Source of the DNA: Bdellovibrionota bacterium
GTDB lineage: Bacteria > Bdellovibrionota_C > UBA2361 > OMII01
Length of the DNA stretch: 64,000 bases
Direction: 5' to 3'
NCBI GenBank assembly: GCA_044345405.1
Contig: JBIJBE010000002.1
Location: 64,001-128,000, forward strand
Part shown: in pieces, positions 20,311 to 64,000 of the stretch
Layout of the letters: each line of letters begins with the position of its first letter
Numbering within the stretch: position 1 is the first letter of the stretch
Program-made: the position numbers and the translations under genes
Notes under the pieces: model-generated
What the model was told of the DNA's origin: nothing
The model's database searches: none
Seen by the model: the letters and a program-made list of their open reading frames with translations, nothing else

Positions 20311-21420
20311 ATGTCATCACTCGTGCTACGGGGAAAAACAACAAACGCGGAGAAGGTGTGGCTACGCATCTCAGCGTTCCTTTCGCTGAAGTCACCAGCT
20401 ACTCGCGTGACCTACTCAGGAATCATCGCTGAGTGGTGTCGCTTCCTCCGCACCGAACCGGGCACTCCTGAAGCATCTGAAGCGATAATCGAGGCGACCG
20501 ATCTTCACGCTATCGCGTATCGAAAATTCCTTGAGCAGAAACCGGGCGAAAAGCCACGCATGGCTCGGATGGGTGGTAGAGTTTCAGCTGAGCGAGGGAT
20601 TACGCTTGAGCGAAATTCCGGTCGTGGAGTCAAGAAAGATGGATTAGACGCGACCCAATCCAACGCCACCATTCACAAGAAGTTCGCGGCACTCAGGCGG
20701 ATCTATCGCATGCTCGTATCGAGTAATCTCGGTATCGCTGAGAACCCTTTTGAAGCCGATAGGGTACCTCCTCCTCCCAAAGACGCCGGGCGAAAGCGCC
20801 CTACTCAGATGATCGACTTTGAGCTCGTCATGGAGATCGTCTCCATCCCTGACACGAACACACCGAAGGGCCGTCGAGATAAAGCTATCCTCGCGACTCT
20901 CTTCGGAGGCGGACTGCGACGAAGTGAAGTGGTCGGTCTCCGCATCGGGGACATAAAGAAAACATCCTCCGGAACCACCTTTCTCTACCTCCGACACACC
21001 AAAGCCAAGAAAGACGCCGAGCAGGCTATACCCCGATGGGCGGCGGACCCTCTGTGGGAGCTCGTTCGAGAGCGTAAGGCCCAAGGCGCTATGGACGGCG
21101 ACTATCTCTTCGTTGGCTTCACCGGAAAGGGTGGGCAAACGATCACGACCAAGCCGATGTCCGATACCGGGCTCTATCTTCTCTTTAAGCAATACTGCAT
21201 GGCTGCTGGCGCAGGGACCTACGCCACCCCCCACTCGGCTCGCGCCACAGCGATAACGAAACTCCTGGCGGACGGAATACCACACCGTGAGGTTCAGGAG
21301 TTCTCCCGACACTCCAGCATTCAGATGGTAGAATGGTACGATAAGCGACGATTTAGCGTTGAGGAGAGCCCAGCCAAGGAGCTTTCATACGACAAACCAC
21401 GCGGCAAGGGGCGTCGATAA
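20311..21420 (+). CDS. Tyrosine recombinase/integrase (XerC/D-like), stand-alone
   Basis: GRRDKAILATLFGGGLRRSE (Arg box I), TPHSARATAIT (HxxR), SRHSS..MVEWY (His, catalytic Tyr). Confidence 0.9.
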   Translation: MSSLVLRGKTTNAEKVWLRISAFLSLKSPATRVTYSGIIAEWCRFLRTEPGTPEASEAIIEATDLHAIAYRKFLEQKPGEKPRMARMGGRVSAERGITLERNSGRGVKKDGLDATQSNATIHKKFAALRRIYRMLVSSNLGIAENPFEADRVPPPPKDAGRKRPTQMIDFELVMEIVSIPDTNTPKGRRDKAILATLFGGGLRRSEVVGLRIGDIKKTSSGTTFLYLRHTKAKKDAEQAIPRWAADPLWELVRERKAQGAMDGDYLFVGFTGKGGQTITTKPMSDTGLYLLFKQYCMAAGAGTYATPHSARATAITKLLADGIPHREVQEFSRHSSIQMVEWYDKRRFSVEESPAKELSYDKPRGKGRR

Positions 21421-47908: not shown

Positions 47909-49513
47909 ATGCAGATAGGCTCTCGACCCCCTGTAACCCCCTCCTTTGAGGCCAACACCAAGGCCTTCGAAGAGCATCTTCAACGGTTGATCACTGAGCG
48001 AACAAGCTCCCGCCCACTTCCGACCGATCCGGCCTATAAGAAACACTGCGACCGTGGAAAGCTCTTCGTGCGTCAACGGATCGAAGCGCTCATTGATCCG
48101 GGCACAACCTTCCTCGAGGTAGCTCAGCTCGCCGGCGCCGGCCTCTACGATGGCGTGCGACCGGGCTCAGGGATGATTACCGGTATTGGCATCGTTGAAG
48201 GCACACCCTGCATGATCATCGCCAACGACGCCACGGTGAAGGGGGGCACCTACTTCCCGATGACGGTTAAGAAACACCTCAGGGCGCAAGAGATAGCGCT
48301 CGAGAACAAACTCCCCTGTATCTACCTCGTCGACTCCGGAGGGGCCTTCCTTCCCCTCCAGGACCAGGTATTCCCCGACCGAGAGCACTTTGGCCGCCTC
48401 TTCTTCAATCAGGCACAGATGAGCGCTCGAGGGATTCCACAGATTGCGGTGGTCATGGGTTCCTGCACCGCCGGAGGTGCCTACGTCCCCGCGATGAGCG
48501 ATGAAGCGATCATCGTTCGCAACCAAGGGATGATCTTCCTCGGAGGCCCACCCCTTGTGAAGGCCGCGACCGGACAGGAGGTCACCGCCGAGGAACTTGG
48601 CGGAGGAGATGTCCACTCCCGCATCAGCGGCGTTACCGATCACCTCGCTGAGTCTGACGCTGAGGCGCTCCTCATGGCGAGAAAGAGTGTCGCGACCCTT
48701 GCGAACATCACGCCGAAGCGACTTACGAGATCCACACCACTCCCTCCGCGCTTCGACGCCAACGAGATCCCCGGCCTCATACCGGCAGATCCGAAGCAGT
48801 ACTTCCCAATCCGCGAGATCATCGCCCGCATCATCGATGATAGCGAGCTCGATGAGTTCAAGGCGAACTACGGCGAGACGATCATCTGCGGCTTCGCTCG
48901 GATCGATGGGTACACCGTTGGCGTTATCGCGAACGACGGGATCCTCTTCTCAGAGAGCGCACTCAAAGCGGCCCACTTCATCCAGCTGTGCGAGCAGCGC
49001 CGCGTTCCCCTCGTATTCTTCCAGAACATCGTCGGCTTCATGGTCGGGAAGGAGTACGAGCACAAAGGGATCGCAAAAGACGGAGCAAAGCTCGTCACCG
49101 CGGTCGCCTGCGCATCCGTTCCAAAGTACACCGTAATAGTCGGCAACTCGTACGGCGCCGGCAACTACGCCATGTGCGGACGGGCATACCAACCACGTTT
49201 CCTCTGGAGCTGGCCACAATCGCGCATCGGCGTTATGGGGCCAGACCAAGCGGCAGGCGTTCTTACACAGGTAAAACGTGACAGCGCAGCAGGTCGTGGA
49301 GAGACCGTCGATGAAGCGGCGCTCGCGGCCTATCACGAAAAGATAAAGGCGAACTACCAAGAGCAAACGACTGCGCTCTTTGCGACCGCTCGCCTCTGGG
49401 ATGACGGTATCATCACACCGAACGAGACACGCAGTGCCCTTTCGCTCGCGCTTTCCCTTGCGGATCTCGACACCCCGCAAGAGCACCGCGTATTCGGCAC
49501 CTTTAGGATGTAG
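47909..49513 (+). CDS. mccB: Methylcrotonyl-CoA-type carboxylase beta (carboxyltransferase) subunit
   Basis: [66 protein letters not shown]. Confidence 0.92.
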
Positions 49514-49523
49514 GTAACGCCTC

Positions 49524-51542
49524 ATGGCTGATACGCGGGCAATCACTAGGGTCCTGATCGCAAATCGCGGCGAGATCGCGCGAAGGATCGTTCGCACCTG
49601 CACTCGTCTTGGAATCGAGACCGTCGCGGTGTACACCGATGTCGACGCTCATGCGCCGCATGTTCGTGAAGCGACCTTTTCTGAAGCTCTCGGCACACCA
49701 GAGTCATACCTCTCGATTGAGAAGATCCTCGAAGCAGCGAAGCGCTCCAAGGCCGATAGCGTCCACCCCGGTTACGGCTTCCTCTCCGAGAACCCCGACT
49801 TCGCCGCCGCCGTGCGAGACACCGGACTCACCTGGATCGGCCCTACAAGCGAAACAATCCGGAAGCTCGGAAGCAAGACCGCGGCGAAAGAGTTGGCTCG
49901 CCAGGCAAACGCCCCAACATCTCCAACACTCATTCTCCCCCCTGGCTCCACCGCCGACCGCGCGAGCGCCATAGCGAAATTCGGCGAGTCCGTTGGGTTC
50001 CCACTAATCTTAAAAGCGGCAGCGGGAGGTGGAGGTCGCGGCATGCGCTTCATCAATCCCGAGAGCGACATCGCCATGGAGCTCGACAGCGCGCAGCGAG
50101 AATCGCTCAAAGCGTTCGGAAGCGATGAGGTCTTCGTTGAGAAGTGCATCACCCCCGCTCGGCACATCGAGGTGCAGATCGTAGGTGACACACACGGGAA
50201 CGTGGTGGCACTGGGGACTCGCGATTGCTCGCTGCAACGAAGTAATCAAAAGATCATCGAGGAGGCACCGGCCGTACATCTCGCACCGGGAAGCGAAGCG
50301 AAACTCCTTGAGGCGGCGACGAACCTCGCTCGCGCGGCCGGATACACAAGCCTCGGCACCGTTGAGTTCCTCTACGGGCAAGATGGGTCACCCTATTTTC
50401 TTGAGGTAAACACACGACTTCAGGTTGAGCATCCCGTCACAGAACTCGTCACTGGGCTCGACCTCGTGGAGCTTCAGCTCCGCATCGCAGCCGGCGAGAC
50501 CCTCGCGGCGTGCGGCGTCACCCACACACCGGAACCACAGGGGCACGCCATCGAGGCGCGATGGTGCGCTGAGGAGTTCACCGACCGATTCACCACAGCG
50601 ACCGGCATCGTGCTCGATATCGAGGTACCGCAGCCAGCGGCCCGCGGCACGATGGTGCGTGTCGATAGGGGCGTTGAGCCGTGCTCGGAGGTTACCCACT
50701 ACTACGATTCACTCATCGGGAAAGTTATTGTCTACGCCCCCTCACGAGATCGCGCGATTGAGGCGCTCGATGACGTGCTCTCACGTTCCCGACTCAGTGG
50801 CGTTCGAAACAATCGCAACCTCCTCTTGCATCTCCTTCGAACGCCAGAGTTTAAGGCGCTTCAGCACACCGTACAGGGAACGAAGCTCCTGCTCCCTTCA
50901 AGTGAGCAAAACTCAGCGATCGTTCGTGAGGCGCACGTTATCGCGGCGGCGGTTCGATGCGCGACACCAAACTCCGCGTGGGCGTCGCAGGGACCATGGT
51001 CCTCGACGACAGCGCCCGATGCACACATCTCCTATCCATGGACAACGAGCGAGCACGGGAACGCTCTCTCAAGCACAACGAGACAAGACGGAAATTCATT
51101 CGTCGTGTCGGTAGACGGGCATTCCGAAACCATTACTTTCACGGAAGGGCCATTCCTGAACGGACTCGGCACCACAGCGACCCTTTCTCTCAACGGAGGA
51201 GCACCAAGCTCCGTATCGCTCTACCGCGACGGAAATGACCTCTGGGTTCATTCGAACCGAGGAACGGTCGTGCTCCACCAACCAGCGATCGGCGAACGCT
51301 CAGGCGGTGCCGGTAGTAGCTCAGCAAACGAGATCCGCTCAACGATCCCCGGTAAGGTCGCCGCGGTTCTCGTCAAAGAGGGAGATACCGTCGAGCAAGG
51401 AGCTACCCTGCTCGTGCTTGACTCTATGAAGATGGAGCATCCGATTCGCGCGACGATGAATGGAAAGGTGGCAAGCTTGCCGCTGCAGGTCGGCACGATC
51501 GTACACGCGGGAGCCCTGCTCGTGTCGCTAGAACCACATTAA
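49524..51542 (+). CDS. mccA: Methylcrotonyl-CoA-type carboxylase alpha subunit (biotin carboxylase plus biotinyl domain)
   Basis: IANRGEIA, HPGYGFLSEN, GGGGRGMR, EVNTRLQVEHPVTE, biotin motif DSMKME. Confidence 0.9.
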   Translation: MADTRAITRVLIANRGEIARRIVRTCTRLGIETVAVYTDVDAHAPHVREATFSEALGTPESYLSIEKILEAAKRSKADSVHPGYGFLSENPDFAAAVRDTGLTWIGPTSETIRKLGSKTAAKELARQANAPTSPTLILPPGSTADRASAIAKFGESVGFPLILKAAAGGGGRGMRFINPESDIAMELDSAQRESLKAFGSDEVFVEKCITPARHIEVQIVGDTHGNVVALGTRDCSLQRSNQKIIEEAPAVHLAPGSEAKLLEAATNLARAAGYTSLGTVEFLYGQDGSPYFLEVNTRLQVEHPVTELVTGLDLVELQLRIAAGETLAACGVTHTPEPQGHAIEARWCAEEFTDRFTTATGIVLDIEVPQPAARGTMVRVDRGVEPCSEVTHYYDSLIGKVIVYAPSRDRAIEALDDVLSRSRLSGVRNNRNLLLHLLRTPEFKALQHTVQGTKLLLPSSEQNSAIVREAHVIAAAVRCATPNSAWASQGPWSSTTAPDAHISYPWTTSEHGNALSSTTRQDGNSFVVSVDGHSETITFTEGPFLNGLGTTATLSLNGGAPSSVSLYRDGNDLWVHSNRGTVVLHQPAIGERSGGAGSSSANEIRSTIPGKVAAVLVKEGDTVEQGATLLVLDSMKMEHPIRATMNGKVASLPLQVGTIVHAGALLVSLEPH

Positions 51543-51563
51543 ACAACCTATGAATTGATAATT

Positions 51564-52209
51564 ATGAAGCTCGGAACAATCAGCATTGTACTCGTGCTCC
51601 CGGCTCTACTTGGTGCGCTTGCGTGGCATTCTTATGTTCTATTTCTCTATCGGGTTGCCTATCGGTTGGCTTGGGTTGAAGAGAATCTTATCCTCTCGGG
51701 AATCCTCGGTTGTACCTATCTCTTCCTAGGCCTCTGCGCCCTTGCACTCACGAGCTATTACGCGGTCCGCACAGCATCTAAGTGGCTAATCGTGAAGATG
51801 GGGCTGTCAGCACTACTCACACTATGCTCGGTCGCATCGTTTTTTGTAGGCGCGTACCTTGGCGAGCTCTGGGCCGTTACTGGCGCCAAATCATATTTGG
51901 ACGGCGTTGTTCGCTCCGCTAATGACTATCTGCAAAAAAAATGGGGAATATCCCGAGTCCTTAGATAAGCTCGACCTCCCTGCGATGCCGCGCTTAATAA
52001 TGGAATCAGCAGACAGCAACAAAAAGCAAGAGCACAAGTCTTTCACTGTGCCGTACCAACGAATTGATGGTCGATCAATCATAGTGGGCTTCGAATACAG
52101 GAAGGGTTTCAGCAACGACGACTGCGCAAGTTATAAATGGACCACAAATAACCCGAGGTGGGTGTGCACATGCCACGGCTGTCTTACCGACAATCCGAAT
52201 CGACGATAA
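51564..52209 (+). pseudogene. Membrane protein gene split by a frameshift in an A8 run (or a sequencing indel)
   Basis: Removing one A from 51934-51941 joins ORFs 51564-51968 and 51859-52209 into ...ANDYLQKNGEYPESLDKL... Confidence 0.65.
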
Positions 52210-52276
52210 GCTCTCTGGCAATAACCCCATCCCGGGATCTGGATTCAGGTTGCCTCGATAAACCGCGGCAAGGCGA

Positions 52277-52645
52277 TCACTGGTAGATCGTTTCCTTCAG
52301 CCGCTTCAACAACATCAACATAAAGCCAGATGAACAGAGGTGAGGAAAGAAGCTTTGATTGAGCTTTTCAGCGTTGACTGCCACGGCAACAAGCTTAGTG
52401 ACGGTCGCCGCATCTGCTGAAAGGATCTTCTCCGGAGACTGAAGAAAGGGCCTCAGCTCCTCAATCCAGCCCATCCAATCAACATCCTCGGAGCACAGAC
52501 CGCTCCCCTTAATGCACTCTTGCAGATCTCTCACCTGCGGAGAGTATTCACCGGTAGTGATATACACTGAATGTGCGTCACGTAATCCGTCAGTCTCAAG
52601 GAGTGGAATAAAATCGAATAATCGCGTCAACGCCGCCTCGTCCAT
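52277..52645 (-). CDS. Hypothetical protein (DUF6508-like, tentative)
   Basis: ATG at 52645; DW..W...ILSAD...LV pattern; the longer ORF-track start lies inside the duplicated fragment. Confidence 0.6.
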   Translation of the reverse strand: MDEAALTRLFDFIPLLETDGLRDAHSVYITTGEYSPQVRDLQECIKGSGLCSEDVDWMGWIEELRPFLQSPEKILSADAATVTKLVAVAVNAEKLNQSFFPHLCSSGFMLMLLKRLKETIYQ

Positions 52646-52739
52646 TTTCTCGGTATACCACACGAGAGCGTGTTCGACTATGACACAGAGAAGCCTTCCT
52701 TGCCCCTGAGCAGACCGCGGGCGACGTGAGAGGTGAAAA

Positions 52740-52920
52740 TCACCGAGCGTCGTTACAGAGGTCAGTAAGGAGCGATACAACGTTAGCGTTAAACTCGCGT
52801 TGATTCCGCAACGCTGGACCGAACACGGCGTTGATGACCGGTTGAAGCATCCGCTTACCGAACACGATAAACGGCCCAATGATCTTACGGTGCGAGGTCG
52901 GAGTCTGGGGCCGAACATCG
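52740..52920 (-). repeat. Orphan 3' fragment of the gene at 62902-63315 (left att-like direct repeat)
   Basis: 181 bp matching 62902-63082; 52864-52920 is identical to 63026-63082; encodes DVRPQTPTSHRKIIGPFIVFGKR...LTDLCNDAR*. Confidence 0.93.
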
Positions 52921-53173
52921 AAGGACCTCCCGCATCGCCTTTATAAGCGCACAGGAGGGAAGATCATCGAAGCGTAGAGTCGCTGATTCCAACCCCTGCC
53001 CCACAGCGCATACTCGGGATCTGCCGAGGAATTCTCAAAAGACACGCCTGCTGCGGCGGAGTCGATTTTTCGAACACTCCAAGAGGCTGGGAGGCGGTAC
53101 CCGATATACATACAGGAAGAATAAAGAAACCGCCGCCCTACTCATCCCTACCTCAGGGCTCATCCCTGGCGCA

Positions 53174-54175
53174 TCACCGCCGCGCAACGGCCCTCTCGAT
53201 TGGATAGAAGGAGAACGAGTATTCCTTTAAAACTGCAATCACCGCCCAGTCCCTAAGGACGTGCCCGAATGCCTCTTGCAGCGAATCGGTAAGCTCTCCT
53301 ATCTGCTCGGGGCTCTCCACTTCACAACGCATGATATAGTCCCAGACACCGACGAGTCGCATCATACTCACAATCGAACGCTGCTGTTGGCACCATCGCA
53401 AGATACTCTTGTGCATCTCAGCAGAGAGTGTATTGCTTGCAATCTGAATTCGGTATACTTGCATGCCAAGGCGAGCCGGCGAGACGAGATACGGAAAACC
53501 TGTTATAACCCCACTCTTAGTCAAAGCCTGTATTCGATAACCAATAGTAGACGAAGGGAGTCCGGTAGCGGAGCTTATATTTCTTAGCGATTCCGCGCCG
53601 CGACCACCTAATACTCGCAATATAGCGTGGTCGACCTCGTCGATGCTGACGATCCCAGACCCCGGCAGCGCCTCAAATCTTCGGCTATGCTTCACGCCCT
53701 CCGGGGCGAGGTATTTCCTCCCGAACCACCAGTATCCGATCGAGAGGCACGAATCTCTCGTATCGAACATGCCCGGCGCGCGAGCGTCGAGCTCCTCTAG
53801 GCGCCGAGCCACGTCAAGCGTATTCATCGCCTCAATACCGATATGATAGTCATACTTACCGGCCGTGCGATAAAACCATCTGATCCCGGGGGATTCCGTC
53901 ACAGCCTGGGTAAGTCTTGCGCTGAGACTCTTTTTATCCTTCGCTGGAGAGAAGAAAACCTCAAGCTCGGTCGCCCCGAGCCGGTAGGTGTCGACAAAGA
54001 CAGCCTGCGAGACAAGCCCCTCCTTGGCCCAACGGCTCATCTTCCCCTGGAGAGCGCTCTCTTTTATCCCTAGAGATTTTGCGAGCGAGCTCAACGGCTC
54101 GTTACCATGGAACTGAAGCGAGTACAGCAGGAACTTGTCTACATCTGAAATTTTTTGAATTTGTTGTCTTTTCAA
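53174..54175 (-). CDS. Tandem (double) Lrp/AsnC-like transcriptional regulator
   Basis: Two wHTH plus RAM-like halves: DKFLL...SLAKSLGI and DEVDHAIL...ISSATGLPSSTIGYRIQALTKSGVI; GKYDY and GVWDY motifs. Confidence 0.8.
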   Translation of the reverse strand: MKRQQIQKISDVDKFLLYSLQFHGNEPLSSLAKSLGIKESALQGKMSRWAKEGLVSQAVFVDTYRLGATELEVFFSPAKDKKSLSARLTQAVTESPGIRWFYRTAGKYDYHIGIEAMNTLDVARRLEELDARAPGMFDTRDSCLSIGYWWFGRKYLAPEGVKHSRRFEALPGSGIVSIDEVDHAILRVLGGRGAESLRNISSATGLPSSTIGYRIQALTKSGVITGFPYLVSPARLGMQVYRIQIASNTLSAEMHKSILRWCQQQRSIVSMMRLVGVWDYIMRCEVESPEQIGELTDSLQEAFGHVLRDWAVIAVLKEYSFSFYPIERAVARR

Positions 54176-54279
54176 TCGACTCTCTACTTACAAAAGACGT
54201 CAATAACTAGCGCTCTAAACTAAAAACCGAAGCCCGACAAGAATAAAGGATGCCAGAGGATTTGTTATAAAACCGATAC

Positions 54280-54320
54280 GAGAGAGAAGAAGGGAAGTGA
54301 ACCCCATGGCTCACTTCCCT
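54280..54320 (-). terminator. Probable terminator after csrA
   Basis: Perfect 10-bp stem agggaagtga / tcacttccct (54291-54320) followed on the minus strand by a pyrimidine tract. Confidence 0.6.
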
Positions 54321-54325
54321 GCTGG

Positions 54326-54493
54326 CTACCGTCCTGCGTCAGGGCGCGTTCTGGTCTCCTGCCTGAAAACTGGAACATTCCTTGGCGCTTCGATTCCAAG
54401 TTTAACCCTTCCGCGTTCAATTTCTAACACGGTAATTTTGATGGAATCACCAATGACTATTACCTGATCACTACGCCGCGCAAGAACCAACAT
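54326..54493 (-). CDS. csrA: Carbon storage regulator CsrA/RsmA
   Basis: MLVLARR..Q.IVIGDSIKITVLEI..GRVKLGIEAPRNVPVFRQE; start ATG 54493. Confidence 0.93.
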   Translation of the reverse strand: MLVLARRSDQVIVIGDSIKITVLEIERGRVKLGIEAPRNVPVFRQETRTRPDAGR

Positions 54494-54510
54494 TAGACTA
54501 TTCTCCCAAA

Positions 54511-54655
54511 AAAACTTCAAAGGCCCTCTGAGAAACCGTCGTCCCTCCTCTGGCATAAGAGTCAGAGCGACATACCGTTAGAGATAGAGAAAGTACAACC
54601 GTCAGTCAAACGACATGAACGGTGACCAACAATCGGCTCGAATATTGGACAAATA
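54511..54655 (-). promoter_or_regulatory. Conserved csrA upstream module, copy 1
   Basis: Palindrome TGACCAA-N15-TTGGACA (54623-54651), TTGACT-17-TATCTC (54609 to 54581), leader core 54524-54566. Confidence 0.75.
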
Positions 54656-54717
54656 CAGAGGCCTCGCCAACGAATATCTCAGGAGAGTGCGTAGCGAGAA
54701 TAAACGTAAATCAGACA

Positions 54718-56958
54718 TCACTCAATTCTCTCCGCCACCCAGTTGTACTCAAACACGCCACTCCGAGAACTAGATGAGCCGGTGACAACGGTTTTTCCAG
54801 ACAGCGCAGAGCCGTCCGCGGACAGAACTGCAGAGCTACTCAGAGTGGCTCCGTTGATGGACTTCGCAAGCAAGTTTACGTCAAAGCCGTGTTCCCGAGG
54901 CGTAACCGAGACCGATTCAAAGTGAGTAAAGAGAACCTCGCCGCTCAACCCCGATATACCCGTTACGCCAACCAGAGTGATAGAAGAGCCAATGAATCCT
55001 CTTTGGCTCTCGTCGAATATGAAATAACCCTCCCCCTCGGCGGGCGCCGTAAGGGACCATTTCCAAACCCCGGCCAAGTGAGAAGGAGTTGATGCGGAAT
55101 TGGACTTGCCGGCTGATAGCGGAGGATTCTGCTGCGGACCGGCGTCGACACGCGGAGTATCTGCTTGCTCCATCAACGGCTGGAGTGGTTCTGCCACAGT
55201 ATTCTCGAGCCAGTCGACTGAGCTGTAGGTTCTTAACTGACCGTCCACTAATCGCTCAAACCCTTTCGTCGCTACCAGCGCCCCCGGTTCGGTCTTATCC
55301 GCAATGTAAAACAGGGCGGTGACTGAAACATCAGAGAGTCGCCGCACCTCGCCTTCTTGCGACACGCCATCTCTATTCGCGTCGAACCACAGGCCCAATT
55401 TGTCGAGTTCGATGCCGTCTATCTTTCCATTTCTATCAGTGTCCATGGTCGCGAGCGCTTCGTACCCATCTTTCCACGGAATGGCGGTGTGTTGGTTGTC
55501 CGAAGCGGGCTGCTTTCCGCCGAAGGTCCAACTGCCGAATAGCTGTTCGGCCGAGGTGATTGAACCGGTGTGTTCAGCGTCAAAAACAAGGACAGGGAGA
55601 GACGCTGAACCTCTCCACAACCACGTATCCTGCTTCGAGTGAGGGTTAAGCTTGAATGACACCATCGTGCTCGGAAGCAGAGAGTAGTCACCAGCCCATA
55701 CCAGGGAGATCGGCGTAGCCATTTCAGCGTAGTAAGAGATAGATCCGCACGACATTTTGTCGGGCGTGATCGTCGAGACTGGAATCAGCTTGCAATTTTG
55801 ATCAATGTAGAGAGAGCCCGCCTTACACCCCGGCTCTTTGTCCTCTTTCGAGCCTCCCCCGATCTGTGCCTCACCTGCATGACCCAGGGAGTTCGCGGCA
55901 CCGTAACCTCCGAGGCAGTTGATGTACTGTTTATTTTGCTCGTAACTGTCTCTTGTCCGCTCGTTCTTCTCGAGAAGGTGTATCCAGAGGTAGCTGGTAA
56001 AGCACGTGGCGTACTTCTCCATCATTTCCTTGCCGGCCAGATCTACGCCCTTGGCCTGGGTGTATCCGAAATCTTGGTTATGACAGGTCTCGAACGCTTT
56101 TCTAGCAACGTCTTCGAAACACTGCAATGATTGCGCGCCCTCACTTGGTGATATCTTCAGATCTCCCAACTTGTGCGTGCTTCCGTGCTTGAAATTAAGT
56201 CCGTAGTAGCTGCAACTAGGGGTTGGAGTAGCCGTGCTTGTCGCCGTCGCCGTTCGAGTGGGTGTGAGCGTCGGAGTCCGGGTAGGAGTTCTCGTAGGCG
56301 TCGCCGTTCGAGTGGGCGTAAGCGTCGGAGTCCGGGTAGGAGTTCTCGTAGGCGTCGCCGTTCGAGTGGGTGTAAGCGTCGGAGTCCGGGTAGGAGTTCT
56401 CGTAGGCGTCGCTGTTCGAGTGGGTGTAAGCGTCGGAGTCCGGGTAGGAGTTCTCGTAGGCGTCGCTGTTCTAGTTGGGGTAGGCGTCGAGGTTGGTGTT
56501 TTCGTCCCCGAGCATCCGACTCTTCGGAGGTAGTTCAAGATGACTGCAGAATCGAGGGGCGTTACACTGCCATCCCGGTTTACGTCTAAAGCTCTCGAAC
56601 TTTCACTAACGGGGCCTGGCCCCTTCTTGATGAGAAACAGGTCGATCGCTTGAGCGTCCGTTTCATTAACCACGCAATCCTGATTGACATCATAGGTTGA
56701 TAAGACTCTGTCGCCGTTACAATCCAGCGGCGCGCAAGGCTTCGCTGTCGCCGAGCGGGTAGGAGTTGGGTCGAGCCGTGAGGGCGCATCCTCTGGGCTG
56801 CGAACGACCGGCGAGGCGTTACAAACCCAAGTCACGGGGTATGATACGGCCAAAAGACACGCGATCCCTAGGGCGCACAGGCGACTGCTGCAATAAAGAA
56901 CAACATTGGCGACCGCACCGATTAAGCCTTCAGCGAAGTCGTTCAGCTTGATCACCAT
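54718..56958 (-). CDS. Secreted protein with dockerin-like EF-hand pair, Pro/Thr linker and Ca-binding-loop C-terminal domain
   Basis: [12 protein letters not shown] and [12 protein letters not shown] dockerin-type loops; TPISLVW...EQLFG...[18 protein letters not shown]...[15 protein letters not shown] pattern seen in large secreted RTX-associated proteins. Confidence 0.75.
56245..56471. repeat. 54-bp coding tandem repeat, four copies plus a partial
   Basis: Units start at 56245, 56299, 56353 and 56407; encode [18 protein letters not shown]. Confidence 0.95.
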
Positions 56959-57559
56959 CCCCTATTCTCCTCTAAGGCGTATAGCAGCCAAGGATCCCTC
57001 GTGCACCTCCCTAAACATCACGGAAGAAGAATGCAAAAAACTTCCGAAAACCATCCGCGACCAGAGGGAACGGCAAATGCCGGGCGGTGGCCACGGCACC
57101 ACAAAATACGCGAGTCGGCTCGCCCTCCCGATGCTAGCCATACCATACTAACTGTTGGGGGCTGTCGTCCGTTCTCGGACGAAACTTTACGTTTACAGCC
57201 AGTTTTGAGAAAGACCAAAAAATAGGAAGATTTCGGGTGCAAGAATGGGTAATGCGAAGGCACCGAACACATGGTCACCTTGTTTCAGCACCATACATCC
57301 TCAGGGAACCTTGCCTGCGGACTACGTTCATACCAGTGAGAGTAGCGGGCTTCCTTACCCAGGTTTCTCAGGGCTTTGAGAACGATCCCAGTGGGCAAGG
57401 TCATGCTGGAGGGGATTCCGAACGACTTTGCCCTTTACCGCGGTCAAACTAGCGGCGGCGGTCGCTTCTTGTGAGGGAAGGTATTTAAAGAGCTGTGGAT
57501 TAAGGGCGGTGCGTTAGCACTAGGTATTTGATCAGTCCGCCTGGTGTTCATGCGCCGGA

Positions 57560-58232
57560 AACACGAAAGCCCTCAGTGATTGTGGAGTTCAGACCGGAGC
57601 GGTCTTGAATGGACTGCCGGTCTCTGACGTGAAAGCGCTAACTGAACTGTCAGTTAACTGTTAATGCGCGTCACTTCCTTGGCTGGTAGAGCTGGGTTCG
57701 TCAGCCGCTGCCTCGCACCAGAAAACTGACCTTGCCATCAAAAGAGCCCCTTACCAGTTTGCCCAGGGCCGGCAATGCCCCTCAAAGATCCCGGTGTCGG
57801 CGCTGATCGGGTTTGTGGCTCTCGACGGAACGCTTTCCGCCAAACTGGAGGAGGGGGTGACGGTATACTGCGATGTCCTTGAGGAACTCAGAAACCATAC
57901 TCGCCGCACTAACGCGAACCTCAGTGTCTATTCTTGTTGGACATCCAAGTGAGCGCTGCGCAACTAACGCGGTACAAAATGAATCAAACTCCGAAAGCCA
58001 TTTGGAGGCAGATACTTCCGCTAATAACAAGGGGTCGAGCACCGAAAGTTCGATTGCAACGAACGACTGCTGGCACTCCTTGACAAGACTGGCCTGCGAC
58101 AAACCCGACACTCCATCGTCTTGCGTTATCAATCACGGCGAACACTCGGATAGCTCTGCCGTCGATGTTCCGGTGCTATTTTTTGGGGGCAGCAGAACAG
58201 GCGCCTCCGATCTTCAACACAAACCGCTCACT
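57560..58232 (-). pseudogene. Decayed paralog of the double Lrp/AsnC regulator
   Basis: Collinear fragments ERFVL...PKKIA, GLSQASLV...IELSV, EVRVSAASMVSEFLKDI, FGGK, ALP, SGLNSTI resemble DKFLL...PLSSLA, GLVSQAVFV...TELEV, GIEAMNTLDVARRLEEL, FGRK, EALP, TGLPSSTI of 53174-54175; several stops and frameshifts. Confidence 0.5.
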
Positions 58233-58301
58233 TCTTATTAAATCAGCTATCAGGATTACGTCGCCAGCTTTTCGGTTCAGACCTAATAGTCCTATTTTCA
58301 T
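58233..58301 (-). pseudogene. Truncated csrA remnant (copy 2)
   Basis: LLGLNRKAGDVILIADLIR aligns to the CsrA N-terminus MLVLARRSDQVIVIGDSIK, at the same position relative to the upstream module. Confidence 0.6.
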
Positions 58302-58307
58302 CCTCAC

Positions 58308-58452
58308 AAACACTCGAAAACCCTCTGAGAACCGTAATCCCTCCTCTTGCATAAGAGTCAGACCGACACACAACTTGGAGCTAGAGAAACCCAAGATCTC
58401 TCGCAAACTACGTAAAGTGCATACAACTAATAGCCCGAACATCGGTCAAACG
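58308..58452 (-). promoter_or_regulatory. Conserved csrA upstream module, copy 2
   Basis: ccctctgagaaccgtaatccctcctcttgcataagagtcaga (58321-58362), TTGCGA-17-TAGCTC, degraded palindrome. Confidence 0.75.
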
Positions 58453-58513
58453 TGAGTCAGGACCAAACCCGAGCGGAACTCCCAGGAGCACCCCCCTCAG
58501 TTTGACAGGGGCA

Positions 58514-61500
58514 CTAAGAACACTGACTGTTAAAGCGAGGAAGCTGCGTTGATACCTCCAGAGTTCGATTATACAAGGTTGTTCCCGTGGCAGCACGGGC
58601 CGCATCGCTTGAACTAAGGCTACGGCGCCGTGCTTTCTTAAGTGTCGACGCCGCTCGCTTCGTGAGGCGGTGAAGCTGCTTCGCGCGACCGGTTATCTCA
58701 GTGATATTTGATGAAGTCTGAATGGCCGCGCATCCAACGCATGATTTAGTCACCAGCGGGAAGCTCGACCATATGCTTTTCCATTGCGCAAGGTAGAGGT
58801 CCTGGGCCTCCTCCTCGTATGAAGCAGCGAGGTCCAAAAAGGTTGACGCGTTCGATACGCGTCTGATGCGACTCGCTAAATAGCGCACGGCAGACCGCTG
58901 TCGCGAGGCGAGATTATCGAGCTGTGACAACGTATCTTTGTTGTCGGCTTCGTTACACGAGATCTCTTCAACGGTACATCGCTGAGTCTGCGCCGAGGCC
59001 TCGACGGCGGCACTACCTAATGTCCACGTGATCACACTCGACGAGCTGGTGTTGTCACTTTCCGGAGTCGCGAAAGGGACAACCATCGTGAAGACATTAC
59101 TAAACGCGCCTCGAAAGAAGGTCGTCGGTTGACCCGGATTCGCCACGCCTGGATCCACGGAATTCCGCGGGCCATAAGGAATTGCAACAGAGGATAGTTC
59201 ATCACTCCTGTAACCGAAGTGTGCTAACAGGCTCCCGTCTTGCAGGACATCCACACACTCGGCAATCGGTGTTACCTTGTATTGTGTGTCAGTTTGAGTC
59301 TCTGTTGCTGACGTTGTCGCCGTAGGCGTCGGTGTCTTTGTCAGCGCTATGACCTCGCATGTTGCCGACGGTGTCGCCGTGGGTGTCGGTGTCTTCGTCG
59401 GCATTATGACCTCGCATGTTGCTGAAGGTGTCGCCGTAGGTGTCGGTGTCTTTGTCGGCACCACCTCGTCGCACTCGACATTGTCTTTTGGTGAGGAACA
59501 TCCCGGATCCAATCCATCAATCAGACCATCTCTGTCGTCATCAACGCCGTTCTGACATTGAGAGGTGCCATCAGCCTCATTAGTATCTTGAGAACTTGAG
59601 CATCCTGGGTCAGCCAAATCGATAAGGCCGTCTCGATCATCGTCCGTACCGTTTTGGCACTGAGAGGTTCCGTCACCCTCATTATTGTCTTGAGGGCTTG
59701 AGCATCCTGGGTCAGCCAAATCGATAAGACCATCTCGATCATCGTCCGTACCGTTCTGACACTGAGCAACTGGCGATGCCTCGTCGCTATCATCAGGTCC
59801 ACTACAAGCGAAGTCCTGCAGGTCGATCGCACCGTCTCTGTCGTTGTCCACACCATCCGAGCACTGACTCGCAATTTGGAAGCGATACGCGACCTTTGCG
59901 GCCTGCCACGGACCCTTCTGGCCACCTTGCCCGATTCCTCGTACGAACCACTGGTACTGCCCTCGCGGCAAAACCGTTGTTGGCGTGTAAGAAGTTGACG
60001 TCAGGCTTGCCTGCCTAATGACCACCTGGCCGTTCGCGGGGGAGATTTGTCTAACCACGATCTCGTAAGTTTTTGCCCCGGCAGCGGCCTTCCAGCGAAA
60101 AGCTACTTCAGGAGCTGAAATTACTCCGTTCTGAGGAGGGAATACCTGCGTTGGTAAGCCGATAGGTTGCGCACGAGCCTCGTTGTTGAGGGTACGGTCG
60201 TATGTCGCACTGCTCGTGAGGTCACGCCAGCATCCGGGGTCGGACGCGTCCGTCACTCCGTCAGAATCGTTATCCGAGCCATCCTGACACTGTGAGGTGC
60301 CATCAGCCTCATTAGTATCTTGGGGACTTGAGCATCCTGGGTCAGCTATATCGACAAGGCCATCTCGATCATCGTCCGTACCGTTCTGACACTGAGCAAC
60401 TGGTGATGCCTCGTCATTATCATCAGCTCCACTACAAGAGAAGTCCTGCAGGTCGATTACACCGTCACCATCATTGTCTAATCCGTCCGAGCACTGGCTT
60501 GCAATTTGGAAGGTAAACGCGACATTTTCGGACTGCCAAGGACCTTTCTGGCCGGCTTGACGGACTGCTCGTACAAACCATTGGTACCTCCCCCGCGGCA
60601 AAGATACCAGTGGCTTGTAAAACGTCGAGGTTATGTTTGCCGTTCTTATGACCTCCTGGTTTGCTTGAGGAGAGACCTGTCTGACCGAGACCTCATAAGA
60701 TTGCGCTCTAGCAACAGCCTTCCAGCGGAAAGCTAATTCGGGCGCCGTAATCACAGCGTTCCGAGGTGGAAACACCTGGGTTGGTATCCCTAGTTCTGGT
60801 TGCGAGCGAGCTTCGTTGTTGAGGGTACGATCGTAGGTCGAGCTGTTCCCGACGTCACGCCAGCACCCAGGATCTGCCGCATCGACCACTCCGTCGAGGT
60901 CGTTATCTGAGCCATCCTGACACTGAGAGGTTAGTAGACCTTCGTCGTTTAGGTTGGGGTCATATGAGCTAGGGTTTTCAGGGTTAGCCCAGCATCCGGG
61001 GTCATATCGGTCAGACAGGCGATCCCCATCGTTATCGAGACCATCGTCGCATTCCGTCCCACCTGAGCACAGATACGAGAAGTAAGCGTTTACACATCCA
61101 TTATTAAAGCCAAGAACCGCCTGGCCGGTGGTGGGATCATACAAAGCTCCCTGGATGCTCGTGGAACTGCACTTAGAAGAGAACGTGTTAGTACCGGCGG
61201 CACACCTTCGATTTCTTCCGATAGTTTGACTTCCAGACGCTTGAGTTGATTTGAAAGAAGTTAGATGAGCGGTCGTCGCTGTTCCCGGCTGGGCGCATAT
61301 ATATCCACATTCCGAGATTCGGCCAGCTCCGCTTTGGGACGCGGTAATAACCCCATCCTCCCTGTTGTAGGAACATTCTACCGTTCCAGTACCGGCGCCG
61401 CCCTGTCTGACCTTTTGGAAATTTGCCACACTGACGACGCAAGTGAGACCAGCACCAATTGAAGTACCAGAGGAAACATATCCTGCCGTAAATTTTTGAC

Positions 61501-61825
61501 TTGCTCCTCGAGAATTATGGCACACATATACGCCCTTTCCGTCGGCGTATCGATTGCTGGCAATGGAGACACGGTTATTAGCAAGGCGTACCTGGAAGAA
61601 CGGCTCCTGATTCGCGGAGTTGTCGGATCGAACCCAAAGATAATTCCCCACAGAGGTAAAGCACTGGTCATAACCATCAGTGGACACGCTTTCTGTTGCC
61701 GAGATGTAGCCCATCTTAACGCCGCTATCCCGATATATCTCCTGGGCATTGATAACCGCCCCCCCAAGGAAGACTGACAAAAGTGAACAGAGCGTTGCGA
61801 TTCGAAGAGATAATCTTGTTTTCAT
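58514..61825 (-). CDS. Large secreted Cys/Asp-repeat surface protein with two FN3/Ig-like domains
   Basis: Signal peptide; about nine C.[DN]G.D[ND]D.DG..D..D..C repeats; duplicated PTQVFPP...FRWKA...YQWFVR domains; PT linkers; C-terminal helical region with CxxC. Confidence 0.82.
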   Translation of the reverse strand: MKTRLSLRIATLCSLLSVFLGGAVINAQEIYRDSGVKMGYISATESVSTDGYDQCFTSVGNYLWVRSDNSANQEPFFQVRLANNRVSIASNRYADGKGVYVCHNSRGASQKFTAGYVSSGTSIGAGLTCVVSVANFQKVRQGGAGTGTVECSYNREDGVITASQSGAGRISECGYICAQPGTATTAHLTSFKSTQASGSQTIGRNRRCAAGTNTFSSKCSSTSIQGALYDPTTGQAVLGFNNGCVNAYFSYLCSGGTECDDGLDNDGDRLSDRYDPGCWANPENPSSYDPNLNDEGLLTSQCQDGSDNDLDGVVDAADPGCWRDVGNSSTYDRTLNNEARSQPELGIPTQVFPPRNAVITAPELAFRWKAVARAQSYEVSVRQVSPQANQEVIRTANITSTFYKPLVSLPRGRYQWFVRAVRQAGQKGPWQSENVAFTFQIASQCSDGLDNDGDGVIDLQDFSCSGADDNDEASPVAQCQNGTDDDRDGLVDIADPGCSSPQDTNEADGTSQCQDGSDNDSDGVTDASDPGCWRDLTSSATYDRTLNNEARAQPIGLPTQVFPPQNGVISAPEVAFRWKAAAGAKTYEIVVRQISPANGQVVIRQASLTSTSYTPTTVLPRGQYQWFVRGIGQGGQKGPWQAAKVAYRFQIASQCSDGVDNDRDGAIDLQDFACSGPDDSDEASPVAQCQNGTDDDRDGLIDLADPGCSSPQDNNEGDGTSQCQNGTDDDRDGLIDLADPGCSSSQDTNEADGTSQCQNGVDDDRDGLIDGLDPGCSSPKDNVECDEVVPTKTPTPTATPSATCEVIMPTKTPTPTATPSATCEVIALTKTPTPTATTSATETQTDTQYKVTPIAECVDVLQDGSLLAHFGYRSDELSSVAIPYGPRNSVDPGVANPGQPTTFFRGAFSNVFTMVVPFATPESDNTSSSSVITWTLGSAAVEASAQTQRCTVEEISCNEADNKDTLSQLDNLASRQRSAVRYLASRIRRVSNASTFLDLAASYEEEAQDLYLAQWKSIWSSFPLVTKSCVGCAAIQTSSNITEITGRAKQLHRLTKRAASTLKKARRRSLSSSDAARAATGTTLYNRTLEVSTQLPRFNSQCS

Positions 61826-62126
61826 GACGATATTTGGACCTTTGTAGTCATCCTTTGCCGAGTTTCACTGTTTAGTGGCACCAATCTTTCTTAAGAAGGT
61901 CGACAAGTCGTTAACCCGACCTTCCCACACACCTTCCGTAAAACCCGCCAATCCCTTCTCCGTTGTTCGGCACATCGACATATGAGGGGCTCCGGGCCCA
62001 GCTACACGCCGATTCCCTTGAGAGACGAAAGAACGAAGCATTCTGGAGGACCTGCTCAAACAACCTTTTTTTGAGACTCAAAGGGAACGCACACCCGTGC
62101 CCCCCGCTGCTAGCTGACGTCCCCAG

Positions 62127-62280
62127 TCAGAAGTCCTTTTCCCCCTGCCTGACCACGGGAACATTCCCTTGGGCTCTGGATGCCCAATTACATTCTGTCG
62201 CCCTTGACGTTTAAAACCGTAACTCCGACGCTTCAACGAACAAGAATTGCCTCATCATGTTTCCGGGCTATCGCCAATCT
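62127..62280 (-). pseudogene. Full-length csrA pseudogene (copy 3)
   Basis: LAIARKHDEAILVR*SVGVTVLNVKGDRM*LGIQSPR(+1)NVPVVRQGE: two in-frame stops, one frameshift, no ATG at the expected start. Confidence 0.85.
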
Positions 62281-62296
62281 GTGCGCACTCTTCTTA

Positions 62297-62442
62297 AAAA
62301 CGTCAAAAGCCCTCTGAGAAACCGTCGTCCCATCTCCGGCATAAGAGTTGAATCGACCTACAGAACGGAATTATAGAAAACAAAAATCTCTGTCAAACGA
62401 CGTAAGGTGTGACCAATTAACGGCACGGATCTTGGTCAAAAT
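62297..62442 (-). promoter_or_regulatory. Conserved csrA upstream module, copy 3
   Basis: Perfect TGACCAA-N15-TTGGTCA (62410-62438), TTGACA-15-TATAAT (62396 to 62370), leader core 62310-62352. Confidence 0.78.
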
Positions 62443-62499
62443 AGTATTCCGCCCTCCCCACAGCGACTCGCGCATGAACAGTTGCGATTGGCTTCACAA

Positions 62500-62901
62500 A
62501 CTCAGTTTTTGGGTTCTATTTCGGTTACCATCACATCGTTACTCAGCAAGCACGAAACACTACCAACCCTTTTTCCCATCCACCGTGACGGATACGACCT
62601 CGGAATGCACTCCGAGCGAGGACCGGTAATTCTTAACAAAGCGACGACCGAGGAGCTCACGGGGGACGCGCAAGCGACACAGCGAACAAGATCCGATCCA
62701 CGCTCCCCGAGAAAGTTGCGGCGATGCTCGTTAATGCTGGAGATATCGTTGAACACTGCGCGATACTGCTCGTGCTCGACTCGATGAGGATGGAGTACCC
62801 GATTTGGACGTCGGTACGTGGGAAGATCTCGACTCGTTAAGCTTACACCTGGAACGGTCGTGCAAACGGGGTTGCCTCTTGAGGCAGTTGAACAGGAATA
62901 A
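62500..62901 (+). pseudogene. Decayed 3' fragment of mccA (biotinyl domain)
   Basis: HRDGYDLGMHSERGPVIL..(fs)ANKIRSTLPEKVAAMLVNAGDIVEHCAILLVLDSMRMEYPI..GK(fs)..GTVVQTG...EQE* aligns to the C-terminus of 49524-51542; left boundary approximate. Confidence 0.85.
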
Positions 62902-63315
62902 TTACCGCGAGTCGTTACTCAGGTCGGTCAACAGCGACACCACATTAGCGTTAAACTCACGCTGATTACGGAGCGCAGGACCAAACACCGCGTTAATAAC
63001 CGGTTGAAGCATTCGCTTCCCGAGAACGATAAACGGCCCAATGATCTTACGGTGCGAGGTCGGAGTCTGGGGCCGAACATCGGCGGAATAGATCTGACAG
63101 AGCCGTCTGAGAAGCTCAACTCGCTCTGGCGTCGCGGTGAATCCATCTCGGGTCACTGAGAATGAGAGCTGTGCGATATGGCGCTCATCCGCCTCGCTGA
63201 ACTTACCAGCGGCGCGCAGGTCGGCCACCCGTCGGGCGAGCGCATCGCGAACATCGGTGTTATTCTCCCCCGCGACGGAGAGCCAGTTTGACTGTGGTGA
63301 TGTAGGAGCTGCCAT
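62902..63315 (-). CDS. Hypothetical protein (integration target gene)
   Basis: 137 aa from ATG 63315, 13 bp after the upstream stop; TSHRKIIGPFIV...NQREFNA segment resembles helical regions of surface-polysaccharide methyl/glycosyltransferases. Confidence 0.75.
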   Translation of the reverse strand: MAAPTSPQSNWLSVAGENNTDVRDALARRVADLRAAGKFSEADERHIAQLSFSVTRDGFTATPERVELLRRLCQIYSADVRPQTPTSHRKIIGPFIVLGKRMLQPVINAVFGPALRNQREFNANVVSLLTDLSNDSR

Positions 63316-63328
63316 AGCGGCGAGCGTA

Positions 63329-64000
63329 TCACAAGAACCGGTGGCGATGAAGCTCCACAAAACGGAGGCGGTGGAACTCCTCCCTTTTGGTGATATATCC
63401 GGCATCTAGCCCCGCCATCGCGGATACCAACATCCCGGCCCCCTCAAGCAAACCAGCCCCCGTTTGGTAGATCCGGATACCATCAGCGAACACCACTTCC
63501 CCCCGCTTTACCGCCGGTAAGGAGTCCCATTGGGGCGCATCCTCAAGCTTTCGAAGGTACCGGACGCTCTCTTCCAGCGTCTTCCCGCGCGGGGCAACCA
63601 TAATCGCGTCAGGGGCGAATGCCGCCAGCTCCTCCCATGTGGTCGGCTTGCTGATTTCGCGCTGCTCCGAATTCATTGTGCGGCCCGACACAAGTCGAAT
63701 AATATCAGGGATCCAACATCCCGCGATCTCCAAGGGCTCAACGCTTGAGAGCACAACCGTTTTCTTGTTTCGCAACCGCTCGTAGAGGTTCCGCCCCCAA
63801 TCAAGGAGCTGCGATTTTAGGCGCTGCGCTCGATCACGTCCGGTTGGCCCCATGCCGATAAGCGTTCCCAGATCACCGTAGGCATCAAGGAGATCGTTAA
63901 GGCTCGCGATATCAACGGACTTTACCCGAACGTTCTTCATCCAGTGGTGCTGGAAATATTCCTGCGCAAACCCGCAGAAGTCGTCGGGGTTATCAGAAAC
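63329..64000 (-). CDS. ABC transporter substrate-binding protein, BtuF/Fe-siderophore (TroA-like) family, 5'-truncated by the window edge
   Basis: PL..AGCWIPDIIRLVSG, TWEELAAFAPD, WDSLPAVKRGEV..ADG; frame open to the window end. Confidence 0.75.
   Translation of the reverse strand, partial: VSDNPDDFCGFAQEYFQHHWMKNVRVKSVDIASLNDLLDAYGDLGTLIGMGPTGRDRAQRLKSQLLDWGRNLYERLRNKKTVVLSSVEPLEIAGCWIPDIIRLVSGRTMNSEQREISKPTTWEELAAFAPDAIMVAPRGKTLEESVRYLRKLEDAPQWDSLPAVKRGEVVFADGIRIYQTGAGLLEGAGMLVSAMAGLDAGYITKREEFHRLRFVELHRHRFL

Follow-up and report, generated by a model that had tools for sequence, protein, structure and literature searches.

A 10-kb island within the last third of a small conserved gene in an uncultured Bdellovibrionota bacterium, with a duplicated gene end and a carboxylase gene fossil

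In the 64,000-nucleotide stretch of DNA analysed here (the window; positions 64,001 to 128,000 of contig JBIJBE010000002.1, assembly GCA_044345405.1), which comes from an uncultured freshwater Bdellovibrionota bacterium, a 10,162-bp island lies in the 3′ part of a conserved gene of 137 codons. The gene is intact, its 3′ end is present a second time at the far side of the island, a relative has a clean empty site, and a decayed fossil of a carboxylase gene adjoins the gene end in use; no recombinase gene was detected in the island. In our view it is probably, though by no means assuredly, a Campbell-type integrated element that was made by a site-specific enzyme which is now lost or acts in trans.

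The duplicated gene end is a gap-free 181-bp direct repeat (52740-52920 versus 62902-63082; BLAST E=1.5e-54). Both copies lie on the minus strand and terminate precisely at the stop codon, as an earlier first-pass annotation of this DNA had described. Counted base by base in gene orientation, 57 bp are identical (52864-52920 = 63026-63082; the core), and the remaining 124 bp (the tail) contain 26 differences, the last of them within the stop codon, where the full gene has TAA and the fragment TGA. The first-pass annotation had given the same 57 bp and about 26 differences, and translation agrees with it that merely three residues change (L/F, S/C and S/A, listed there as F/L, C/S and A/S). The Nei-Gojobori method yields about 19 synonymous and at most five non-synonymous steps in the tail, with a synonymous divergence (dS) of about 1.4, and the comparison of non-synonymous with synonymous rates that had been proposed for the two ends gives a dN/dS of 0.04-0.06. 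These values identify the two ends as old, separately evolved, selected versions of one coding sequence, joined to a block free of differences. Given the divergence of the tail, 57 consecutive identities have a probability of about 1.5e-6. The core is present exactly twice in the 3.59-Mb genome. On the left (attL) side, the displaced copy (52740..52920, minus strand; core 52864-52920, tail 52740-52863) has an open frame of merely 66 codons, and no open reading frame (ORF) of at least 50 aa starting with ATG, GTG or TTG is listed in this frame. Thus, it looks like a moved piece of the gene rather than a second gene. On the right (attR) side, the identical block (63026..63082, minus strand; from alignment and count) is the putative crossover region, and the gene end in use (62902..63025, minus strand; 26/124 differences from the fragment), which the island would have supplied, abuts the carboxylase pseudogene fragment.

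An empty site, in which the target gene is followed directly by the gene at 52277-52645, had been predicted to occur in relatives, and it is present in one of them, G044. The downstream neighbour in question (52277..52645, minus strand) encodes a DUF6508 protein (Pfam DUF6508 E=5.6e-12), lies outside the island and has the same position and spacing in G044, where the gene order is ACC (a biotin-carboxylase/carboxyl-carrier gene), DUF6508, target gene and binding-protein gene. A DNA search covering all 35 genomes of the genus found in G044 one contiguous 647-bp stretch, collinear with the displaced end, that comprises the DUF6508 gene and the fragment at 83% identity. In a three-way alignment, G044 agrees with the right copy in the part upstream of the core, and with the left copy from the tail onwards, across the spacer and as far as the DUF6508 gene; its homology to the left side ceases at 52920. 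The flanks match G044 at 84% over 8100 bp (left) and 77% over 3152 bp (right), and the window differs from it by a single clean 10,162-bp insertion at the core. Among the 91 genomes that the order-wide counts cover, a second gene end is found only in the genome studied here (G000). None of the other 90 has it, which removes the possibility raised at first that all relatives carry both copies. Second matches in G025 and G065 fall inside 481-507-aa methyltransferase paralogues and are not displaced ends. Tandem accretion, which would have left a third, native end beside ACC, was rejected for the window: when 49000-64000 was searched with an nhmmer profile built from 10 gene ends, no additional remnant came up.

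Next to the gene end in use lies a decayed 3′ fragment of an ACC gene (about 62578..62901, plus strand). It was recognised by the repeat finder as a long-range direct repeat (51322-51467 versus 62680-62825, 73%; D4) and by alignment with the ACC 3′ ends of five relatives. The resident, intact ACC gene (49524..51542, plus strand) sits 11 kb away; in most relatives this gene converges directly on the target gene. The fragment contains one frameshift, and its SMKM motif, whose lysine we take to be the biotin attachment site, has become SMRM. Six intact genes share 148 invariant columns, and the fragment deviates in 28 of these. In leave-one-out controls, the three independent lineages deviated in 10, 15 and 18 columns, and the resident gene, like both members of a near-identical pair, in 1. 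The stop codon of the fragment abuts that of the target gene with zero spacer, the same arrangement as in G010. Judged by these alignments, the roughly 505 bp from 62578 to 63082 are chromosomal DNA of a related organism whose ACC gene directly adjoins the target gene. Because the gene end in use is joined to this organism's decayed ACC fragment, it is best understood as the orthologous end of a related former host, and no designed recoding is involved. Thus, of the idea that an element in a coding gene supplies a synonymously recoded replacement 3′ end, the topology, the intact 137-codon gene and the displaced end hold. The special recoding does not; in its place stands the ortholog of a related species that still bears a decayed piece of the next gene.

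Synteny and decay also indicate which end is native. The fragment on the left is collinear with the G044 chromosome and the end in use is attached to a truncated, decayed ACC piece, so that the left end would be native and the right end carried in. The displaced gene end is undecayed: all three of its variant residues are found in relatives, and its core is identical in 57/57 positions. Since the ACC piece is eroded while the displaced end is not, the data fit an ACC piece that was already old and useless dead weight on the element when the recent insertion occurred. A mirror image of this polarity would have the right block (carboxylase fragment, end in use and gene 5′ part) native. Foreign DNA consisting of the ACC 3′ part, the two ORFs orf137 and orf116, the DUF6508 gene, the gene-end fragment and the island would then have entered via a homologous exchange, either within ACC or on its upstream side, and have been joined illegitimately near 62578; the 57-bp identity would have come about later through gene conversion. 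Such a course would account for the duplication of the ACC 3′ end and for the fact that ACC stands directly beside the target gene in most relatives, as it does on the right-hand side. The tail in use is, moreover, about as similar to the metagenome contig L039 (105/124) as is the gene 5′ part (189/231). We nevertheless consider this course very improbable. The donor's conserved target gene must already have been broken exactly at the edge of the core, an extra conversion event is required, and the ACC fragment is far more decayed than the gene-end fragment although both would have been useless from the same moment. Furthermore, the left flank is collinear with G044 through ACC, DUF6508 and the fragment at a uniform 83-84%. 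We rejected tail distances on their own as too weak a basis for polarising the two ends: G044 has the tail closest to that of the fragment (16/124 differences) and L039 the one closest to the tail in use (19/124), and all values are within the spread of the species group.

When a circle and the chromosome undergo one reciprocal exchange, as in the Campbell model, the signature is an insert between direct repeats of the gene end, with the gene itself reconstituted. On this model, a 10,162-bp circular foreign element would have recombined with the 3′ third of the target gene, with the crossover inside the 57-bp block. The attachment region of the circle would have consisted of a non-coding arm, the core, the gene end and the ACC fossil. 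The arm would correspond to the 253 bp of the island beside the left core (52921..53173, no strand assigned), which contain no ORF and no Rfam match. The element would have borne about 0.5 kb of a related former host, namely the last 181 bp of the target gene and the last ~320 bp of the convergent carboxylase gene. After insertion, the gene would run from its own 5′ part into the element-borne end and remain intact, and the native end (52740-52920) would be left at the far side of the island, still beside the DUF6508 gene. The host DNA was probably captured by imprecise excision in an earlier host, in the manner of specialised transducing phages, and the same imprecise excision could also have taken off the integrase end of the element. 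As the island is without a recombinase today, it would now be stranded or at best mobilisable in cis or in trans, like a cis-mobilizable element (CIME).

No integrase, resolvase, transposase, relaxase, replication or transfer gene was detected in the island by six-frame family searches or by scans of the larger ORFs with Pfam, NCBIfam, PHROGs and PADLOC, and no decayed int, relaxase or transfer gene was found among its ORFs with Pfam and NCBIfam. The gene adjoining the core encodes an Lrp/AsnC regulator, not an integrase. These searches bear out the view of the first-pass annotation that the element has no intact integrase. In the gaps 56959-58513 and 61826-62577, ten stop-to-stop ORFs gave no Pfam match at E<=1; Rfam had no match for 51000-64000 at E<=0.1, and the window contains no tRNA. 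Neither this genome nor the 90 relatives yielded a helper element with the same site specificity. The sole tyrosine recombinase of the window (20311-21420), 31 kb away, was rejected as the integrase of the island, as it is a genus-wide syntenic core gene (32/35 genomes); the two other recombinases of the genome are on other contigs (C49 and C7). The 369-aa protein of the window is 72-93% identical across the genus and appears housekeeping-like, and its gene shares a contig with the target or the ACC locus in three genomes. Another tyrosine recombinase, of 342 aa, is encoded at C49:17633-18661 (L060 2134-3162) beside a 179-aa zinc-ribbon-like ORF; its N-terminal region may resemble that of integron integrases.

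Other kinds of island were considered and rejected. For a prophage, PHROGs yielded only a CsrA-like regulator, a weak helix-turn-helix (HTH) match and low-complexity or Ig-domain matches. For a defence island, PADLOC returned only the weak winged-helix similarity of the Lrp-type regulator to the HTH parts of Csa3/CasR. As to a transposon or insertion sequence, the scanned ORFs contain no transposase family, no inverted repeat pairs the island ends, and the island is flanked by a 181-bp repeat of diverged gene sequence rather than by a short target-site duplication.

The failure to detect a recombinase gene in the island also bears on the agent of the exchange. In place of a site-specific enzyme, RecA could have integrated circularised DNA of a relative, delivered by transformation, a gene-transfer agent or a transducing-type particle, by a single crossover in the longest identical stretch. 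Heteroduplex repair would then have made the 57 bp identical as far as the edge of homology, which would explain why the identity tract halts exactly at this limit. The element-borne homology is long (~505 bp, 62578-63082), the cargo is DNA typical of the lineage, and 57 identical bp are longer than the shortest processing segment that RecA exchange requires. Outside the core, though, the homologous segment shows 21-36% divergence, which strongly depresses RecA exchange. Moreover, the crossover took place at the extreme edge of the homology, which is expected for an attachment site and is just one of many places for RecA. In a second lineage (L039), too, the end of this gene has been displaced, which hints at a preference for the site. 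As for the 57 identical bases, neither mechanism demands them, and conversion or repair must be invoked either way. Weighing these points, we prefer a site-specific enzyme as the likelier agent, and integration by RecA appears unlikely, though it deserves serious consideration.

Integration of an element by a site-specific enzyme, the reading we favour, has several points to contend with. Six-frame searches of the whole genome at E<=1 found no match to PF00589 (Phage_integrase) or PF00239 (Resolvase) in the island (C85:116921-127082), and the 57-bp core has no exact match in IMG/VR. A tyrosine integrase needs few identical bases, so that the 57-bp identity requires additional gene conversion or heteroduplex repair. 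The cargo belongs to families typical of the lineage, and the island could be ordinary chromosomal DNA of a relative. The exact arrangement of the empty site occurs in just 1/90 other genomes, and most have the carboxylase gene directly after the target gene. The two tails differ from G044 at 16 and 23 of 124 positions, which is no significant gap, and the end in use is as near to L039 as the gene 5′ part. Finally, no circle, restored site or excision joint turned up in the public contigs, which break in both cores and in which the excised and the integrated form are indistinguishable.

The last point relates to the assembly. The 171.6-kb contig extends 43 kb past the target gene, and the stretch is present in twenty public runs, all lake-water metagenomes, from 4 of which, one of them marked as a possible source, contigs were examined at k=31. 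In none of the four runs does a contig bridge either core; all break within them, with contig ends at 52893 and 63055 and contig starts at 52891 and 63053. At this k, the graph is the same whether the element is integrated or a circle exists beside an empty site, so that the pieces are confirmed and their order is not. The 57-bp block might have let the assembler join non-contiguous DNA, either an empty site and a free 10-kb circle or two strains or species. The genome, a metagenome bin, comprises 85 contigs and has a contamination of 3.5%, and a second strain is visible at the left flank in runs X9 and X12. Against such an artefact speaks that the homology of the fragment stops at the core and is followed by island DNA, not by a second gene 5′ part. 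Even a chimera of two strains still requires a molecule that joins core and island, i.e. an integrated or a circular element. Since the core occurs just twice, no contig of the bin can contain an alternative junction, and reads longer than 57 bp should normally resolve such a repeat. In addition, flank and island depths track each other in the four runs, as far as these coarse figures go (flanks 27.7/28.6 and island 20.4-26.5 in X1; 10.5/11.1 and 6.3-9.6 in X8; 5.75/5.89 and 4-6.9 in X12). A minor-variant contig of X12 (62980, 63066; depth 2.1) reaches only about 14 bases beyond the core and forms no bridge. The ratio of island to flank depth, about 0.6-0.95, might mean that some cells lack the island; the depths are coarse and unrankable, and we draw no conclusion from them. 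Altogether, we regard a misjoined assembly as improbable.

On the metagenome contig L039, an intact target gene (91% identical) is followed by 886 bp with a 146-aa ORF, then by a 46-bp remnant of the extreme 3′ end of the gene (L039 1391-1436; nhmmer E=5.9e-6) and then by a 205-aa ORF. The remnant differs from the tails of close relatives at 9-13/46 positions and is too decayed for assignment. Going by this alignment, displacement of the gene end apparently happened two or more times, or else a single time far back in a common ancestor. The exchange at the very edge of homology and the same gene end struck in another lineage both argue for a site-specific recombinase. It is tentatively conceivable that the 3′ end of the gene is an attachment site used recurrently by small cargo islands, with a recombinase provided in trans by an unseen element or by the host, and that the attachment region preserves the fossil of a former host.

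The sequence 3′ of the target gene varies in almost every relative examined. In six of the eight relatives examined first, the target stop is followed within 0-450 bp by the stop of the convergent ACC gene; of the other two, G020 has a contig that finishes 207 bp past the stop, and G024 has no ACC gene in the 12 kb examined. The contig ends of G020 do not overlap and carry small dispersed repeats. The spacers 3′ of the target gene in G020 (L014 2889-3095) and in L038 (501-811) contain ACGT-rich small repeats, and those of G020 match eight contigs of the genome studied here at 74-88%. They look like miniature dispersed elements and are probably the cause of the contig break in G020. Between ACC and the DUF6508 gene of the window, the overlapping orf137 and orf116 (51555-52209) jointly match a single 205-aa membrane-protein ORF of L039 (1573-2190), and the copy in the window is probably frameshifted, as judged from this match. 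The 715-bp segment with the two ORFs is entirely missing from G044. A 59-bp small dispersed repeat inside orf137 (51832-51890) has a 95% match on contig C82 and coincides with loose contig ends in three runs.

Within the island, the cargo begins beside the non-coding arm with a tandem Lrp/AsnC-type regulator of 333 aa (53174..54175, minus strand; Pfam AsnC_trans_reg plus HTH_AsnC-type). Matches to it occur in 65/91 genomes, with up to 15 per genome, the nearest at about 50% identity; the order thus has a strongly expanded family of paralogous tandem Lrp/AsnC proteins, each some 330 aa long. It is followed by an intact csrA (54326..54556, minus strand; Pfam CsrA E=9.8e-21), in which the match begins at residue 22 and the likely start is 54493. 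Next comes a 746-aa dockerin protein with EF-hand-like sites and TPTRTP tandem repeats (54718..56958, minus strand; Pfam Dockerin_1 E=4e-11; repeat family D1), the repeats being encoded by 54-nt tandem units at 56219-56488. A 116-aa ORF of no family lies between this gene and that of a 1103-aa secreted protein with acidic double-disulfide repeats (58514..61825, minus strand; NCBIfam NF033662 E=4.4e-54 in nine stretches), which contains 57-nt tandem coding units at 59303-59473 and 630-nt duplications. Both large secreted proteins have further paralogues within this genome and within the genus. When the 35 genomes of the genus were searched at the DNA level, only paralogous pieces of the cargo genes turned up, and neither a second copy of the island nor its junctions. 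The island has a GC content of 0.50-0.55, whereas the right flank and the ACC gene reach 0.57-0.62; the value is similarly low (0.50-0.52) over the 1.2 kb that separate ACC from the gene-end fragment.

Two further csrA-like sequences accompany the intact gene. A diverged N-terminal piece with the same leader (58233..58389, minus strand) is a weak call with no Pfam match at E<=1, and a pseudogene with two in-frame stops and a conserved leader (62167..62440, minus strand) was identified by tblastx and blastn against the intact module (repeats D6, D10 and D12). The three modules (54326-54653, 58233-58389 and 62167-62440) share a conserved leader of 70-145 nt. The degenerate modules are located just upstream of the 116-aa ORF and of the gene for the 1103-aa secreted protein, and the intact one upstream of the Lrp-type gene. 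The island looks as if it was assembled from repeated cassettes of leader, csrA and cargo.

The target gene itself (62902..63315, minus strand) is located downstream of a periplasmic-binding-protein-like gene and encodes an intact product of 137 aa that belongs to no Pfam or NCBIfam family. It was detected in 38/41 and 81/91 genomes sampled from the order, and closer relatives with 78-92% identity are present on four metagenome contigs. BLASTP shows homology between this product and a Methyltransf_23 protein of the same order, over residues 29-139 of the latter's 499 aa (27% identity, E=4e-10). It is a stand-alone version of the N-terminal, non-catalytic ~110 residues of S-adenosylmethionine-dependent methyltransferases of about 470-500 aa (L042-L044, 468-499 aa), a domain that has no family name in Pfam or NCBIfam.

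Gene ends are known targets of mobile elements. Phage 21 resides in icd of Escherichia coli, and so does e14. According to an excerpt of PMC13626634, e14 lies between icd and the C-terminal pseudogene icdC; it is a cryptic prophage with SOS-induced excision, grouped with prophages that carry site-specific recombination systems. Going by the same excerpt, the present island resembles e14 in its location in the 3′ part of a protein gene, the element-borne end with mostly synonymous differences and the C-terminal fragment at the far end. In contrast to e14, the island has no detected recombinase or phage genes. It also carries a fragment of the next host gene; we have met no such report for e14, for which no specific search was made. 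Defective transducing phages such as lambda dgal and lambda bio swap their own end for adjacent host DNA by imprecise excision and are then able to insert by way of this DNA. A comparable capture of host DNA would explain both the carboxylase fossil and the missing integrase, although, unlike these phages, the island contains no phage genes according to PHROGs.

Integrative and mobilizable elements (IMEs) and integrative and conjugative elements (ICEs) insert in the 3′ ends of housekeeping genes without disruption, as stated with Table 1 in the available part of PMC5704250. The targets of those with tyrosine integrases named there include guaA, rplL, rpmG, rpsI, trmE and yicC. With such insertions the island shares the repeats, here 181 bp, a gene that stays open for 137 codons and a precise empty site in a relative. 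It differs in its new target gene (137 aa, no named family), its uncultured freshwater host and the lack of a detected integrase, relaxase or replication gene; it is the integrase that sets the island apart from the integrase-bearing families. CIMEs, as outlined in the same part of PMC5704250, have lost their integration and transfer genes and kept attL and attR, are frequently located where a target gene ends, and undergo accretion; those related to ICESt1/ICESt3 are an example from its reference list. The island is likewise flanked by two repeats, which we assume to be functional att sites, and has no detected integration or transfer genes. By definition, it would thus fit a CIME. CIMEs arise by decay of ICEs or IMEs and can be mobilised by a related element that integrates next to them; the ORFs of the island yielded no decayed int, relaxase or transfer gene with Pfam or NCBIfam that would mark such a descent, and its repeats are 181 bp long with a diverged part.

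The principle of gene-end targeting is known; the target gene and the host lineage are new, and the ACC fossil is an uncommon and informative detail. The island provides a clear, well-polarised case outside the model organisms, in an uncultured freshwater lineage. Its decayed piece of the neighbouring gene reveals a former, related host as the origin of the replacement end, and the contrast between the old fossil and the undecayed displaced end acts as an internal clock. For genome annotation, the case illustrates that a conserved gene that looks intact can be a chimera of native and imported parts, and that islands without an integrase are recognisable from duplicated gene ends alone. If the end of this gene is indeed a recurrent attachment site, the sequence of the island would be direct evidence that gene-targeting elements obtain their replacement ends when an imprecise excision captures host DNA at their flank, and that an element can lose its integrase in this way.

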